A stretch of 64,000 nt of DNA from an uncultured Candidatus Nitrosopelagicus sp. (GTDB lineage Archaea; Thermoproteota; Nitrososphaeria; Nitrososphaerales; Nitrosopumilaceae). The translations under genes and the position numbers were made by a program. The stretch is from NCBI GenBank assembly GCA_964511265.1, contig CAZEES010000003.1, positions 836 to 64,835 on the forward strand, written 5' to 3'. Position 1 is the first letter of the stretch, and each line of letters starts with the position of its first letter. Positions 29,942 through 48,990 of this stretch are shown in pieces. The notes beneath the pieces were generated by a model. That model was given only the letters and a program-made list of their open reading frames with translations, was not told where the DNA came from and ran no database searches.

Positions 29942-29980
29942 TATGTATCTATTTGATATGTTATAGAATAAATTAATAGA

Positions 29981-30054
29981 TGCAGTCAGCGGGATTCGAA
30001 CCCGCGTCACAGGGTTGGAAACCCCGAATACTAACCAGGCTATACTATGACTGC
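29981..30054 (-). tRNA. tRNA-Gly (anticodon TCC), intron-less
   Basis: GCAGTCA acceptor stem, CGGGG-TTTCCAA-CCCTG anticodon arm, GGTTCGAATCC T-arm. Confidence 0.96.
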
Positions 30055-30076
30055 ATAAGGATAAAAAAAATTTTAC

Positions 30077-41104: not shown

Positions 41105-42757
41105 CTAGACTGCAATTATTCCTTCTTTAATGAGGAATTGAATTCCGGATGCAAATGTATTATCGTCTATTTGACCGTCAGCCCACCATGCAGCATTATT
41201 TCTGACCCAATCAGGAATTGTTGCATTTTCATTTTGTGCACCACTTCCAGTGGTTGGTACAGAAATAATTCCTTGTTTTATCATAAATTCAATTCCGGAT
41301 GCAAATGTATTATCGTCAATTTCACCATTTGACCACCATTTTGCATTGTTCTTTACCCAATCAGGAATACTAACAGATTGTTCTGCAGATGGAGTTGGGG
41401 TAAATGAGCTACTAGTAGATACACCTACTTCAAACATCTGAGATGTTTGTATAAATTCATCATAATTAGAAAAGCCCTCTCCAGTCAATACCAAATTCAG
41501 AGTATACATGCCATCGTCAGGTATTGTTATCAAATGTGTGGCAATTCCTTCTATTGATTTTACACCTACAAATTGTTCAGGAGTATCACCAGTAACCAAA
41601 TTAAATTGATTGCCTTGTGGATCAACTAGACCAAATGCATAGATTACATCTTTTACCAAACCTCCATTATTATCAAAGAAGGAAAACTCAAATGGAATTT
41701 CGTCTCCAATTCCATATTTAGAATCCCAAGCAATAATTGCTGTATAGCCATTATCAAATGACATATCAAATGAATTTTTTTCAGTATTGCCTTGTGGAAT
41801 TAATTCAAAGTTCATTGTCTTAGAAGATTCATGAGATGGACCCAAAACTTCGTTAATTCTCTGTAATTCAGTTCCAGTTACTAAAAAGTGAACAATATTT
41901 TCAGTCTCAGATGAATATGGATCCATTATCAGAACTCTTTGATCAACTTCAATGCCATCTACATAACCCTTGAATGATGTTTCAGTACTGTATGGATCAA
42001 ATGATTTTGGAACCCGAATCTCTTCATGAACCATTTGAACTAATTCTACATATTCAGGTGCCCAATCAAAAGGCATGTCGAACGATATGGCGTTATTACT
42101 TTGAGCATATGTGAAATTTTCTATGTCGTCATAATAGGTTTTTACTGTTACAGGAATTTCTGCTGCTGCAGTTTTGATAAAGAAATTTTGATCTTGGGCA
42201 ACACTAACGAAAGTATCAAAGTTTAGTGGTTCAGCTACTAATGTTCTAGGACTTGTAGCACCTTCAATTGAAACTTTGACATTATACAATCCGCCTTTTT
42301 CAAAGATTGGACCATCAATAATTGGTACACTGTCACCTCGTGCAAACAATCCACCAGCTGTACTATGGACTTCACCATAATATTGAGTACACTTCCAAGG
42401 CTTTGCCTCATAACAATCAGTTTGTGGTCTGACCTCAACATTTAGTGTACCATCTTGATCATAGAAATAATTTCTAGCTAAAAGATCTCCACTTCTCCAG
42501 ATTTCAACACGATAAGTAACTTGTTCTAAATTTTGATCAGTTAATGTGTCGTAAAAACGAATTGCAATATTTGCAGAATCAACTTCACCTGCAGTCATAT
42601 CAGAAGGGTCTAACTGAGTAAACACAGTGACTTGCATGCCACCAAAACTAATTGGAGGTGCAGCATCGCCACCTAAACCATGACCAAATGCATCTTCACT
42701 TAGAAATGGCAAAGTAACAAAGATAGCTGCAATGAATAATAGACTTGTATAGTACAA
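41105..42757 (-). CDS. Secreted surface protein with two C-terminal IPxWVKNNA-WW modules
   Basis: Signal peptide ...DAFG-HG; paralog of 49017-50567. Confidence 0.8.
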
Positions 42758-43679: not shown

Positions 43680-44327
43680 TTATTTTCTCTTTGCAAATGA
43701 TGCAATAGCAATTACAATTCCTATGATACCTAATCCTATTGCAACGTAGCTTAACATAGAAGTGTCATTTGATGGTTGATCTTTTAATTCATTTACGGTT
43801 TGTTGTAATTCTCTAATATCACCACGTAAATCATTAATTTCACGCTCAAAATCTCCAGATTCCACAATAGTTGATTCAACAGGAGGGAATTGCAAAACTT
43901 CTTGCTCTTCAACTTTTAGTGGATGTAATGCCAAGTTGACATTTTGTTCATTGATTTTTCCAAGAAAGTTTAGTTGCGACCAACCAGAAAATGTTGGTGT
44001 GATTGGCGATTCGTATTTACCTGAAATATCTGTTGGTTGTAATGGAAGTGTTATAGATTCAGTTTCAACAACTAGTTGTATCTTCAAAGTTTTTCTTAAA
44101 CCATCGATTCCTTTTTCAGGATCAAATGGCTGATCTGCAGCCTCCTTACTTGTGTCCATTTCACTAACATAAACAATTATGGCATTTGACTCGCCAGTAA
44201 CTATTGGCTTGTTTTTCCAGTCAATCTCAATTCTGTAATCTCCTACCGAGTCAGATTGGTGGGCAAATACACTACTAAGGAATAAAGGAGATATCAAAAG
44301 AATTACAATTATGGATACACTTTTCAC
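43680..44327 (-). CDS. Secreted, C-terminally anchored His1 protein
   Basis: VFA-HQSD, coiled coil, TM, KRK tail; paralog of 45473-46123. Confidence 0.75.
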   Translation of the reverse strand: MKSVSIIVILLISPLFLSSVFAHQSDSVGDYRIEIDWKNKPIVTGESNAIIVYVSEMDTSKEAADQPFDPEKGIDGLRKTLKIQLVVETESITLPLQPTDISGKYESPITPTFSGWSQLNFLGKINEQNVNLALHPLKVEEQEVLQFPPVESTIVESGDFEREINDLRGDIRELQQTVNELKDQPSNDTSMLSYVAIGLGIIGIVIAIASFAKRK

Positions 44328-44434
44328 AGTATTTTCAGAGAATTGTTTGAATAAAAATCAAGGTAGTACATTTATCGATAAAATAGGCATGAATCTGGAG
44401 ATCATTTTTATTGTCCAAATTTGGAATTTACCTA

Positions 44435-45304
44435 ATGAATAACAAGACTCTAAGTTCCTTATTCGTTCTTTTTGCAATTGTTTCAATCGGAATGACTGCA
44501 GCACCTGGTGCATTTGCTGAACACTCAATGAATGCAACAGTAGAGAACGCACAAGGTTCTTCGTCTCCGGGATGTGAACCAGATTGTTTCATCCCAGCTA
44601 CAGTTACCATTGGTGTTGGCGGTCAAGTTACATTTGCTAACAACGATAATGCAGCACACACATCTACAGCTGGAAGTCCAGCAGATGGACCAAGTGGGGT
44701 ATGGGACAGCTCATTAGTTATGGTTGGACAATCATACACAACTCCACCACTAGATGCAGGAGAATATCCTTACTTTTGCATGGTTCACCCATGGATGGTA
44801 GGATTGGTAATTGTTGAAGAAGAAAGTCATGACGATCACGGTGATGAACACGCTGAAGAAGCAGAAGATCATAGTGGTATGGAAATGCAAACACTAACTG
44901 CAGCAGATATTGCAATTAGTGTAAATGATGGTGCAAAAGCAGGTGAGAAAGTAGCAATTGACGTAACAATTAGCGGTGAACACGTTAACTATGATATTGT
45001 TGCAACTCACAATGGTGAAACAATCCTAGATGAGAGTGGCAATCATTCACATACAGGAGAAGGTAGTCACACTACATCAGCACTCAGTGCAGATGCATCT
45101 GATGACAACCCAATTGATGTTACAGTAACATTCCAAGGATTTGGTATGCCAGGTGACGACAAGACAGGTCCAATTGGATTAACAAACACAGCACAAGCAG
45201 TTCCAGAATTTGGTGCAATAGCAGCAGTGATTCTTGCAGTAGCAATTGTTTCAATAATTGCAGTATCAGCAAAATCAAGACTTAGCTTTATGCCAAGACT
45301 CTAG
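44435..45304 (+). CDS. Blue-copper (type 1) protein with His-rich linker and PEFG-CTERM anchor
   Basis: AAHT, YFCMVHPWM, SHDDHGDEH, VPEFGAIAAVIL. Confidence 0.92.
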   Translation: MNNKTLSSLFVLFAIVSIGMTAAPGAFAEHSMNATVENAQGSSSPGCEPDCFIPATVTIGVGGQVTFANNDNAAHTSTAGSPADGPSGVWDSSLVMVGQSYTTPPLDAGEYPYFCMVHPWMVGLVIVEEESHDDHGDEHAEEAEDHSGMEMQTLTAADIAISVNDGAKAGEKVAIDVTISGEHVNYDIVATHNGETILDESGNHSHTGEGSHTTSALSADASDDNPIDVTVTFQGFGMPGDDKTGPIGLTNTAQAVPEFGAIAAVILAVAIVSIIAVSAKSRLSFMPRL

Positions 45305-45310
45305 ACAAGA

Positions 45311-45338
45311 CTTTTTTTCCTTTTATTTTTATTTTTTA
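45311..45338 (+). terminator. U-tract terminator of the PEFG cupredoxin gene
   Basis: Long T-rich tract right after the stop codon. Confidence 0.6.
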
Positions 45339-45396
45339 TCTAGTACAACTGTAGTATGTACCAATTTGTATAATAATGAAAAGTGTAGAAACAAAG

Positions 45397-45474
45397 TGAT
45401 AGACAGTTCCCTTAACGTGTCATAAGATAGGAACTTCATCGTCTAACCAGAAATTCTGTCTATCAGTTTTTTTT
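45397..45474 (+). ncRNA. Candidate structured small RNA
   Basis: Perfect 10-bp terminal stem, inner hairpin, upstream TATA-like box and downstream T8; strand not certain. Confidence 0.45.
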
Positions 45475-46123
45475 ATTTTCGACGAATCATAGCAATTACA
45501 GCTAAGATTACACCAGCCGCGCCTAAGCACAAACCAAATACACCAAAGTTGTAAGCATTTTGTATATCTACACCACCTGCAGTAAGACTGACATCACCAA
45601 CATTTGATTTTAGATTTGAGACGTCCTTTTGCAATGAGGATAATGCATTTTTTACTGCGCCTATTTCGCCTGCAGAAGATGATCCACTAACTGGTGGAAA
45701 TGCAATGACTGATTGACTCTCAACATCTTCAATAGGAATAACAGCATCAATTGCTAAGCCGTTAAGTTCACCTACTAATTTTACAGACATTGAACCTGTT
45801 TTAGTTGGTAAAATTTTTGCATAGTAATGTCCAGGTCTTGGATCAGAATTAATGTCAAGTGTTTTAGTTGCACCACCTGAGATTAGAGTTGCAGTCATGC
45901 TTTTGAAAGCACTGTTAATTCCTGTTCGAAGACCTTCTTTTTCTCCAGATTCAGCCACTTCAACAACAATAGTATTAGGTAATCCAACTACTGGAGGTTC
46001 ATCTCCCCAGCCAGCCTCAATCTCATATTGTTCAATATGGATAGTAGTATGCGCAAATGCAGAAGACATTCCAAATCCGGATATCAAGAGCATACTCAAA
46101 AAGAGAAAAGATTTTTTCAACAT
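45473..46123 (-). CDS. Secreted, C-terminally anchored His1 protein
   Basis: AFA-HTTIH, GWGDEPP, coiled coil, TM, RRK tail. Confidence 0.78.
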   Translation of the reverse strand: MLKKSFLFLSMLLISGFGMSSAFAHTTIHIEQYEIEAGWGDEPPVVGLPNTIVVEVAESGEKEGLRTGINSAFKSMTATLISGGATKTLDINSDPRPGHYYAKILPTKTGSMSVKLVGELNGLAIDAVIPIEDVESQSVIAFPPVSGSSSAGEIGAVKNALSSLQKDVSNLKSNVGDVSLTAGGVDIQNAYNFGVFGLCLGAAGVILAVIAMIRRK

Positions 46124-46218
46124 GTTTTATTTCAATTCTTACATTATTATCTTTACTAAAATAGTACAACTTTAAAACACGTATTTCTTTAAATTACAAG
46201 AATGCAGATTTCATATTA

Positions 46219-48990
46219 TTGAATAAAATTTGGATTCTTCCAGTCATAATATTTTTTTTAGGATTTCCTCTAGCCAGTGCACACCCATTTTTGTTAGATT
46301 CTGAACCAGGACAAGGACAAAATGTGCCAGCAGGCACTACCCAAATCATTACAAATTATTCCGAAGCAGTTGAAATTGATTTTTCTGAATTAAAAGTGTA
46401 TGACGCAAATGGAAATCAGATAGACAATAGAGACACCATGTATAATGACGGAGAGACGTCACTTGTTGTTACAACATCACCCCTTGAAGATGGGGTTTAT
46501 ACAATAACTAGCAAAGTTTTATCAAAAGTTGATGGTCATCTAGTTCAAGCAGCAATAGTTTTCGGAGTTGGAGATGTAAAAATTGATTCATCATTACTAG
46601 AAAAACAACAAAGTTCAGAGACTACATTTATTCCAGAATCAGTTGCTAGATTTCCCGGATTAGTGGGACAAACAATAATTCTTGGAGGAGTAATAGTTTC
46701 AATTACGATCTGGTCATCACAGCAAACTAGATTTAGAGAAGTTTTTAGTGACATAAATGAACAATTCAAAATAAAATTTTCAAAGATTATTGGATATGGA
46801 GTGATTGCTACATTTGCATCAAATTTTATAATGCTTGGAGTTCAGACATGGAGATTAGAAGTTTCACCATTAGATGTTATTGGAACTACATTTGGTACAA
46901 CGTGGCTAATTCGAATGATCATTACCATCATCATTATTGGAATTTGGTTTTGGATGGAAAAGAAAAAAGAGATTACAATGAAAGGACAAATTCCTTTGTT
47001 AGTAGTATCACTAATTTTGATTGCTACAACTACAATGATGGGACATGGAGCATCGACTGAATTACAAGCACCATGGGTTTTGGATTATGCTCACAATTTG
47101 TTGTCATCAATCTGGATTGGCGGAGTGATATTTTTTGCCTTTGTTGTACTCCCCACAATTACAAAAGCTGATAATTCTACGAAAGAGAAAATTGCACTAA
47201 GTTTGATTCCAAGATTTTCAGGATTATTCATCATAGCAATTGGGATTTTAATCATAACAGGCCCAACTTTGCTATGGTTCTTAGATGATAACGTATCATC
47301 CCTTACAGATTCAACATATGGCAAGTTAATTTTAATCAAGATTGGAATTGCCGCCATAATGATAGCGTTTGGCGGATTATACCAAGTGAAGTATTTAGGA
47401 AAGATGAAAGATTTTGAGAAATTAAATATTTCAAGAAAAATTAGCAAGCCACTGAAATTTGAAGCAGGGTTAGGAATTGCATTATTAGCAGTAGTTGCAC
47501 TTTTGGTAAATTCTTCATTGCCTGCTGGAGAGATTCAATCAGCTGATGCGATACAAGGAACGTTTGGTTACGAGTCAGTTTTATTTTCTGAAAATGCAAA
47601 ATTTGATGTTAAAATAGAACCAGCAGGAATTGGTTCAAATACAATTTCAGTTATAGTTTCATCATTTGATGATAAACCGCTTGCAGATATTTCTGGATTG
47701 AAGATCAAAGTTTCAAATCCACAAAAGAACATCTCTCCAATAGGAGCTGAGGTAATTGAGAACGTACAAAATTCAGTCACCAGATATACTGCAGACACAA
47801 CATTTGGATTTGCAGGTAACTGGCAAATTGAGTTAGAAGCTCAAAGAATAGAGACCTCTAATGAAAATGTAATTTTCAACATTCAGATAAAACCATCGCT
47901 AAACGATGTCAGAACAGAGATTACGGAATATGATTTACCTGCAGATGATACTGCACCACTCTTTCCAGTTTATGATGGAAAGAACATTTGGATTTCTGAT
48001 GCACAAAAACCACGTCTATGGAAATTTTCAATAGAAGATGAACAGTTTACATCATACACATTTGATGGAATGACTACAATTTTTATGGACATCGGTAAAG
48101 ATGGGAAGATTTGGTTTACTGACACACCAAATTCAAAAATTGGAAGTTTTGATCCAAAAACTGAGAAATTTGAGACAATCAAATTGCCACAATTTACTTT
48201 GGTGAGTAAAAAATCACTTCCAACCTCAGTTGCAGTCGATAGTGAAGATGATGTTTGGGTTGCAGTCATTGACCGTTCGATAATTTTAGAGTATAACCAA
48301 TCAACTGAGAAATTCAAGATAATGAATACAATCACGCCTGAAGCAGGACCAACTGCATTAGAGATTGATGGTTCAGATAACGTATGGTTTGCCGAATCAC
48401 TGGTAGGAAAACTTGGAAAAATTGATGCAGAAACAAAAGAGATGAGTGAATTTGTTCCACAAACAGAGCCAATGGCAGAACCATTTGCGCTAATGATTGA
48501 TAAAGAAGAAAATATTTGGATTGCGGAGCATATTGGACCTGCAGTAACAAAGTTTAATCCAATCTTAGAAGATTTTCAGAAAGTTCCGATTGCAAATCCA
48601 GAATCATTGCCCTTCGGAATGGCCATTGACAAATATGATAACATGTGGGTAGCACAACACGTCATAGATAGTTTAGTGGTGTATGATCAGAGTAGCGGAC
48701 AGATGACTCAAGTTGCAATACCAACTGAAGGATCATTTACGCAGTTTGTGATTGCAGATGATAATGGAGACATTTGGTTTGTAGAACAACGTGGAGGAAA
48801 ACTTGGTAAAGTTTCAATCAGTGCGGTACCTAGTCAGAGAACAGCAATTCAGGAAGAATCAACTGAAAGTATGATGTATGTTGAATTGGTAGCGCCGATT
48901 ATTGCTGCAGGAATTATTGCCACATCATTATTTTACGTTAAAAGTGTGAGAGATAAGAGAAAAGTTGACGAGATGATCTCCACTAAGTAA
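46219..48990 (+). CDS. CopC-CopD-Ig-like-beta-propeller (Vgb/NHL) fusion, copper uptake/resistance
   Basis: ASA-HPFLLDSEP and DGH (CopC); GHG, HNLLSSIWIGG (CopD); repeated DG.IWFT/DN.W..E blades. Confidence 0.9.
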   Translation: MNKIWILPVIIFFLGFPLASAHPFLLDSEPGQGQNVPAGTTQIITNYSEAVEIDFSELKVYDANGNQIDNRDTMYNDGETSLVVTTSPLEDGVYTITSKVLSKVDGHLVQAAIVFGVGDVKIDSSLLEKQQSSETTFIPESVARFPGLVGQTIILGGVIVSITIWSSQQTRFREVFSDINEQFKIKFSKIIGYGVIATFASNFIMLGVQTWRLEVSPLDVIGTTFGTTWLIRMIITIIIIGIWFWMEKKKEITMKGQIPLLVVSLILIATTTMMGHGASTELQAPWVLDYAHNLLSSIWIGGVIFFAFVVLPTITKADNSTKEKIALSLIPRFSGLFIIAIGILIITGPTLLWFLDDNVSSLTDSTYGKLILIKIGIAAIMIAFGGLYQVKYLGKMKDFEKLNISRKISKPLKFEAGLGIALLAVVALLVNSSLPAGEIQSADAIQGTFGYESVLFSENAKFDVKIEPAGIGSNTISVIVSSFDDKPLADISGLKIKVSNPQKNISPIGAEVIENVQNSVTRYTADTTFGFAGNWQIELEAQRIETSNENVIFNIQIKPSLNDVRTEITEYDLPADDTAPLFPVYDGKNIWISDAQKPRLWKFSIEDEQFTSYTFDGMTTIFMDIGKDGKIWFTDTPNSKIGSFDPKTEKFETIKLPQFTLVSKKSLPTSVAVDSEDDVWVAVIDRSIILEYNQSTEKFKIMNTITPEAGPTALEIDGSDNVWFAESLVGKLGKIDAETKEMSEFVPQTEPMAEPFALMIDKEENIWIAEHIGPAVTKFNPILEDFQKVPIANPESLPFGMAIDKYDNMWVAQHVIDSLVVYDQSSGQMTQVAIPTEGSFTQFVIADDNGDIWFVEQRGGKLGKVSISAVPSQRTAIQEESTESMMYVELVAPIIAAGIIATSLFYVKSVRDKRKVDEMISTK

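Follow-up and report, generated by a model that had tools for sequence, protein, structure and literature searches.

A lineage-specific element beside copper genes of Candidatus Nitrosopelagicus is a candidate archaeal small RNA gene

Introduction

Nitrosopelagicus-type thaumarchaea are among the most abundant nitrifiers of the ocean. They oxidize ammonia and are heavily dependent on copper proteins. In a 64,000-nucleotide stretch of DNA from an uncultured Candidatus Nitrosopelagicus sp. (hereafter, the window), a short block with an inverted repeat separates two convergent genes of a copper cluster. What does this block encode? The original prediction, made from the sequence of the window, proposed a novel sRNA of about 70 nt and, as a fallback, a 3' UTR element of the convergent gene on the right or an RNA antisense to that gene. 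Our literature search found neither a small RNA for the Nitrosopelagicus-type group nor a thaumarchaeal sRNA at this locus. We conclude that the element is real, conserved, and lineage-specific. Beside copper genes, a new small RNA gene of archaea or an antisense module is its most likely identity.

The locus and its neighboring genes

The host is a Candidatus Nitrosopelagicus-like marine thaumarchaeon. The close relatives of the flanking gene all belong to Nitrosopelagicus or marine group I assemblies, and a contig from a Red Sea metagenome (L035) is identical over the element. To the left of the element, a gene for a plastocyanin-like cupredoxin with a PEFG-CTERM sorting signal (44411/44435-45304, + strand; stop codon at 45302-45304) is followed by its T-rich terminator at 45313-45339. 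The real start of this gene is probably the ATG at 44435 and not the TTG at 44411, because the signal peptide follows the ATG. The product of the convergent gene to the right (45473-46123, minus strand) is 216 aa long and has both a signal peptide and a C-terminal anchor. A gene for a 923-aa CopC-CopD fusion (46219-48990, + strand) is divergent from the 216-aa gene. The fusion combines CopC, CopD, a YtkA-like domain, and a Vgb-lyase/SGL-type beta-propeller, an unusual architecture that is kept in relatives.

The flanking plastocyanin-like and CopC-CopD genes bear out the copper setting named in the original prediction. The 216-aa gene, which belongs to no recognizable family, does not demonstrably do so. 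The 216-aa protein has no sequence match in Pfam, NCBIfam, or PDB, and a YcnI-like label was dropped for this reason. A 30%-identical paralogue is encoded at 43680-44327 (minus strand). Both paralogues are about 215 aa long, with a signal peptide that ends in AFA or FA directly before a histidine; their C-terminal half is coiled-coil-like, and both have a membrane anchor. Metagenomes contain 2398 homologues, yet the three databases have no relative. Processing at this site would leave a histidine at the N-terminus, as would be expected for a histidine brace that binds copper. Elsewhere in the window, a 19-nt inverted repeat (41195-41213 and 41251-41269; 84% complementary, 37 nt between the arms) lies within the coding sequence of a 550-aa gene, at a place where the protein has two near-identical C-terminal repeats.

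Distribution of the block

The presence of the block was examined in 30 syntenic loci from distinct species-level genomes. A block of approximately 127 nt (45340-45466) is present only in the window and in four other loci among these 30. In most of the loci, the two stop codons are 25-50 nt apart and a T-rich spacer alone lies between them. The block is absent from the more distant marine group I, Nitrosopumilus, and Nitrosotenuis loci examined. The terminator of the plastocyanin-like gene (45313-45339) corresponds to the left half of the T-rich spacer of block-free relatives and the T-tract at 45467-45474 to its right half, which predates the insertion. Copies of TTTTTATTTT flank the block. 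This duplication is of low complexity and ambiguous, and it would fit either insertion into the T-rich spacer or deletion from it.

A pattern scan of metagenomes and exact-protein look-ups supplied further contigs. Approximately 70 contigs carry the block, always at one locus, and they represent 22 distinct sequence variants. The carriers form two clusters. In the DNA of the flanking gene, these diverge by up to 21%, as much as carriers do from non-carriers. One carrier (L002) combines the 216-aa gene of the type-B/C cluster (9% DNA distance) with a type-A element, and comparison with L050 and L068 places recombination breakpoints at the 3' end of the 216-aa gene or close to it. From the divergence of the carriers, the mosaic L002 locus, and the absences, the block is therefore old for these lineages, recombines, and, being missing in most close relatives, is dispensable.

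A genome-wide search for copies had been suggested as a means of excluding a miniature inverted-repeat transposable element (MITE), and searches of the window, of related loci, and of metagenome and viral collections do so. The element occurs once in the 64 kb when up to three mismatches are allowed. A covariance model built from 18 variants and run on the window with filters off detected no other copy there or in 205 kb of related loci (33 other loci). All eight of the metagenome pattern matches lie between the same two genes, and the nine matches in a viral collection are GC-rich chance hits. Like MITEs, the element is a short block with presence/absence polymorphism, an inverted repeat, and flanking T-rich direct repeats. 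Unlike them, it exists as one copy at one locus, and the ends of the block are not formed by its inverted repeat: the arms start at 45397 and 45456, leaving 56 nt of the block outside the repeat. A MITE was rejected on both grounds.

The outer stem

The 10-bp inverted repeat that drew attention to the locus consists of the 5' arm TGATAGACAG (45397-45406) and the fully complementary 3' arm CTGTCTATCA (45456-45465), separated by 49 nt. The minimum-energy fold of the + strand of the window includes this outer stem (P1) and an inner hairpin TTCC-CTTA/TAAG-GGAA. It has a free energy of -17.5 kcal/mol (z = -2.6), and 1 of 200 shuffles was equally good. The fold of the minus strand is also stable (-18.0 kcal/mol, z = -1.6), and the folding energies do not discriminate between the two strands. 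Several other spaced 10-bp inverted repeats are found in the AT-rich window, some of them within coding sequence. A repeat of this kind is within chance, and its significance comes solely from conservation in relatives.

The 22 block variants from the approximately 70 Nitrosopelagicus contigs contain 18 distinct RNA variants, which give 180 stem cells (base pairs in the alignment). P1 is paired in 99.4% of these cells. When the partner is slid by 1-3 columns, pairing drops to 23-44%. Five pairs are invariant, one shows a compensatory double change from G-C to U-A in seven sequences, and the other four vary solely as U-A/U-G, A-U/G-U, or C-G/U-G. Between the two divergent variant groups, which were compared segment by segment here and below, the 5' arm is 78% and the 3' arm 83% identical, both with 0 gap columns. 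The consensus computed by RNAalifold is the P1 helix alone. P1 is a conserved secondary structure supported by covariation, although as a single conserved helix it gives thin structural support.

The wobble pairs also bear on the strand of the RNA. The 22 wobble cells on the + strand would become A.C mismatches on the minus strand, whereas the + strand has one A.C cell. In variant L056, a folded minus-strand RNA would have 3 mismatches in the 10 bp. This pattern is suggestive of the + strand as the folded RNA, short of proof, since the asymmetry amounts to approximately four independent events against one and is not significant alone (binomial p ~0.2).

The RNA interior

The 49-nt interior (45407-45455, + strand) contains three conserved blocks without conserved pairing. 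The block CCCTTA (45409-45414) is 91% identical between the two groups and GTGTCAT (45417-45423) 99%, both with 0 gap columns, and CGTCTAACCAGAA (45440-45452) is 95% identical with 1 gap column. The indel-rich middle of 15 nt (45424-45438) is 20% identical with 6 gap columns. RNAalifold predicted no conserved helix within the interior. The inner hairpin of the original prediction, although part of the + strand fold of the window, is not conserved: its two halves are paired in 58% and 71% of cells in the 18 variants, without covariation. Conserved pairing is therefore a property of the outer stem and not of the inner hairpin.

An alternative helix had also been envisaged between TAGAC and GTCTA at 45441-45445. 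The latter is present, and TAGAC/GTCTA occurs three times in the element (45400-45404, 45441-45445, and 45459-45463). The alternative helix can form in 17 of the 18 variants. Four of its five pairs are invariant, however, which makes it uninformative as to the two conformations that had been proposed. No conserved open reading frame was found in the block among the relatives compared. A 7-codon frame on the + strand and a 37-codon frame on the minus strand of the window are not kept in relatives, the latter being interrupted in L002.

Promoter, palindrome, and terminator

A segment with a palindrome, a BRE, and a TATA box (45341-45378, + strand) is 85% identical between the groups with 1 gap column. 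The TATA box of the proposed + strand promoter, TATAATAATG (45369-45378), includes TATAATAA (45369-45376), which had been recognized as lying at archaeal promoter distance from the 5' arm. This distance is kept in the relatives: a conserved TATAATA is located exactly 28 nt upstream of the stem in 22 of 22 variants. The 18-nt spacer between the TATA box and the predicted start (45379-45396) is 34% identical with 0 gap columns, and it is nearly neutral in sequence while its length is fixed. A TATA box, a spacer free of sequence constraint but of fixed length, and then a conserved RNA are, on sequence evidence, what a promoter with its start site should look like. The nonamer ATAATAATG recurs on the minus strand, 18 nt ahead of the ATG of the neighboring 216-aa gene, and marine group I loci retain that box.

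On the 5' side of the element's own TATA box, RGTACA half-sites form the palindrome GTACA-N9-TGTAC (45343-45361, within a feature at 45341-45362). Its arms are invariant in all 22 variants, changes being confined to the 9-nt center, and the sequence is unique within the window. It may be an operator. The sequence TAGTACAAC is found exactly twice in the 64 kb, once at this palindrome and once at 46162, where the 216-aa and CopC-CopD genes have their conserved divergent promoter. At both sites, it lies at an almost equal distance from a TATA-like box. The sharing of an RGTACA-type motif across the copper cluster hints at co-regulation through a shared operator.

Related motifs were observed more widely. 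TAGTACA is over-represented in the window (13 copies against 5.8 expected), and 5 of the 13 copies fall within 3.8 kb, between 42.3 and 46.2 kb. TAGTACA/RGTACAA recurs in the intergenic regions of the copper cluster at 42750, 44364, 45341, and 46162 (+ strand). Across marine group I (L001-L089), RGTACAA is kept at a site flanked by the two TATA boxes of the divergent 216-aa/CopC-CopD promoter.

On the 3' side, the run of eight T residues that had been noted after the 3' arm is present at 45467-45474 (+ strand), separated from the stem by one G, and is a likely + strand terminator. Every variant has 6-9 consecutive T after the 3' arm. In the window, 2 nt of the run are shared with the TAA stop codon (45473-45475) of the 216-aa gene on the minus strand. 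That the tract is older than the insertion is a point against the sRNA reading.

Transcription of the region

The RNA data consist of assembled, unstranded metatranscriptome contigs, whose adapter remnants in mixed orientations give no strand call. The block is covered in at least nine metatranscriptomes, at approximately the depth of the 216-aa gene. The contigs (80-513 nt, all unstranded and each exceeding the predicted sRNA in length) extend from the element into the 3' part of the 216-aa gene, and the element is likewise contiguous with this gene in the window's own runs. Four contigs from four runs of one study begin at positions 2478-2490 of locus L032 (window 45348-45360), within the palindrome and upstream of the TATA box, and cross the T-tract into the 216-aa gene. 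The simplest reading of these four is an mRNA from the minus strand that carries about 110 nt of 3' UTR. The contig pattern as a whole fits two readings, namely such an mRNA or + strand read-through of the T-tract. Another contig (X43) ends at L032:2528 (window 45398), at the base of the stem. In X41, the depth is 16 in the element region and 3.7 in the body of the 216-aa gene.

A discrete transcript of about 75 nt is not among the unstranded contigs; an RNA of this length would be under-represented in such libraries anyway. For the proposed sRNA, covariation of the stem, spacing of the TATA box, and the T-run speak in its favor, while its discrete transcript of about 70 nt has no counterpart in the contigs. 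The fallback of a 3' UTR element or an antisense RNA is supported by the RNA data at least as well as an independent sRNA is.

The plastocyanin-like gene (L032:2300-2446) is very highly expressed, with a sharp 3' end at its T-tract. Its depth falls there from more than 1000 to 0, before the element (X43 and X46), and in X39 a coverage gap separates the gene from the element. The element is therefore not the 3' UTR of the plastocyanin-like gene, and a role as 3' UTR or terminator of this gene was rejected. The predicted position downstream of the upstream gene's own U-tract is borne out by the same drop in coverage.

Known RNA families and complementarity to tRNA-Gly

The original prediction recognized no known family, and database searches agree. 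With permissive thresholds, Rfam searches of 1.4 kb and of 96 nt gave solely sub-threshold matches, the best being eukaryotic miRNA hairpins at 17-19 bits (thresholds 54-66). A C/D-box RNA was rejected because the RUGAUGA/CUGA box pair is absent and the sole Rfam C/D match scored 8 bits against a threshold of 40. The element resembles archaeal C/D-box sRNAs in its size, its terminal helix, and a UGAU near the 5' end, but its termini are fully Watson-Crick complementary, so that a K-turn is impossible. An H/ACA RNA was rejected by inspection.

The interior (45407-45455, + strand) is collinearly complementary to the D-loop, anticodon arm, and variable region of tRNA-Gly(UCC). The predicted duplex of the element with this tRNA has an energy of -32.6 kcal/mol, compared with -19 for shuffles, of which 0-5 per 1000 were equally good, and this is the case for all variant types. 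The D-loop sequence CUGGUUAG matches exactly, and the anticodon and variable loops match partially. The element and tRNA-Gly(UCC) are also alike in total length (about 71 nt) and in being closed by a terminal helix. On the minus strand of the element, CUGGUUAG takes the place of the D-loop, and UU(U/A)CC(A/U)A(C/U) occurs at the would-be anticodon loop. Unlike a tRNA, the element has no cloverleaf, as its D, anticodon, and T stems cannot form. ARAGORN gave no tRNA call for the element at default, ps80, or ps60 and called solely the true tRNA-Gly at 29979-30055 (minus strand). Only its permissive mitochondrial mode calls the element, inconsistently across variants and strands. Rfam returned no tRNA match to the element, and BLAST-type alignment of the element with tRNA-Gly gave null-level scores. 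A scan of all 80-nt windows on both strands yielded runners-up in unrelated coding sequence at -32.2, -31.8, and -31.1 kcal/mol. Prediction of trans targets in 64 kb is therefore uninformative, and the complementarity may be due to chance. With the finders negative, the alignment at null level, and the runners-up nearly equal, an origin from a tRNA was demoted to a weak lead.

If the lead were followed, the + strand RNA would be an anti-tRNA that arose when tRNA-Gly(UCC) was copied in inverted orientation. The exposed D-, anticodon, and variable loops of tRNA-Gly or its precursor would be bound by the conserved unpaired blocks of this RNA, with GGA or GGU (glycine codons). We consider this a very long shot; if true, a copper-gene promoter would be linked to how much of one tRNA is available.

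Proposed mechanism

The reading we prefer, with a probability of roughly 0.5, is that the block is a lineage-specific small non-coding RNA gene of the + strand, carried with its own promoter on the 127-nt cassette. Transcription would be directed by the BRE/TATA element at approximately -30, with the RGTACA palindrome as a possible operator, and would start at approximately 45396-45399, at the base of the 10-bp helix that would clamp the 5' and 3' ends of the RNA. The interior would expose the three conserved unpaired blocks CCCUUA, GUGUCAU, and CGUCUAACCAGAA as a functional surface. Termination would take place at the tract of 6-9 U that overlaps the stop codon of the 216-aa gene.

The sRNA so defined would lie within the 3' UTR of the convergent 216-aa gene. 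Either the transcript of the 216-aa gene or read-through from the element crosses the cassette, and the sRNA would therefore be antisense to the 3' end or 3' UTR of this gene. The most likely action would be control of the 216-aa mRNA by base pairing with its fully complementary 3' end. Other RNAs or a protein could also be partners of the conserved unpaired blocks. Copper may regulate the sRNA.

In Sulfolobus, Pyrobaculum, Methanosarcina, and Haloferax, cis-antisense and intergenic sRNAs are described whose sequences overlap convergent genes at the 3' end or in the 3' UTR. The element shares with archaeal antisense sRNAs a predicted length of about 70-80 nt, its own TATA-type promoter, an oligo-U terminator, and a tail-to-tail arrangement with a protein gene. 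It differs from the known ones in having no sequence or Rfam relationship to them, in being confined to part of one thaumarchaeal genus, and in that its discrete RNA is only predicted.

Competing readings

The RNA contigs themselves are best accounted for by a structured 3' UTR of the 216-aa mRNA on the minus strand, with no separate sRNA. The stem, a U-rich stretch, and a GUACA-N9-UGUAC hairpin would then define or protect the 3' end of the mRNA. Contigs from eight runs join the element to the 3' half of the gene at similar depth, the outer ends of these contigs are grouped at the palindrome or at the stem base, and the minus-strand fold is as stable as stated above. Sequence variation in the relatives is harder to reconcile with this reading. 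The loss of pairing on the minus strand (22 of 180 stem cells, and three pairs out of ten in L056) argues against a minus-strand fold, the conserved TATA box at a fixed distance across a neutral spacer would be left unexplained, and the minus strand has no run of five or more U where the contigs end. A structured 3' UTR is a possibility that we take seriously but hold to be unlikely. The DNA could also act as such, with the RNA incidental: the block would be a regulatory module in which the TAGAC/GTCTA motifs and the RGTACA palindrome bind a protein, for example a metal-responsive regulator or an insulator between the convergent genes. The three occurrences of TAGAC/GTCTA, the retention of RGTACAA by marine group I loci in the divergent promoter of the cluster, and the excess of TAGTACA would suit such a module. 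However, variation in the stem arms keeps G-U pairs of the RNA type, which would be meaningless for a DNA palindrome, and a spacing of 49 nt between the arms is unusual if they form a single binding site. We regard a DNA-level module as highly improbable.

The small RNA reading must also be set against the view that the block has no function and is a decaying relic of an insertion, for example a degenerate inverted copy of tRNA-Gly, whose conservation would reflect recent ancestry and recombination. The polymorphism among close relatives, the absence from all outgroups, and the T-rich direct repeats are compatible with a relic, and recombination does occur, as L002 with its type-A element beside a type-B/C-like gene indicates. 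The minus strand is collinear with positions 7-55 of tRNA-Gly(UCC) (shuffle p 0.004-0.08), but this similarity is no better than chance in the whole-window scan. Conservation within the block is uneven, at 20-34% in two segments compared with 85-99% in five others, which therefore argues for selection rather than uniform decay. The divergence of the carriers in adjacent coding DNA, up to 21%, likewise speaks against recent ancestry. A relic is improbable in our estimation.

Significance

If the block turns out to be no more than a 3' UTR or a relic, its interest will be local. As a plausible new lineage-specific archaeal sRNA gene, it is at present a candidate. Should the small RNA be confirmed, the locus would represent a strain-variable, promoter-bearing RNA cassette that abuts a neighbor of the CopC-CopD and plastocyanin-like genes. 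The cassette would then provide a concrete example of RNA-level regulation in this group of marine archaea, with natural carriers and non-carriers.
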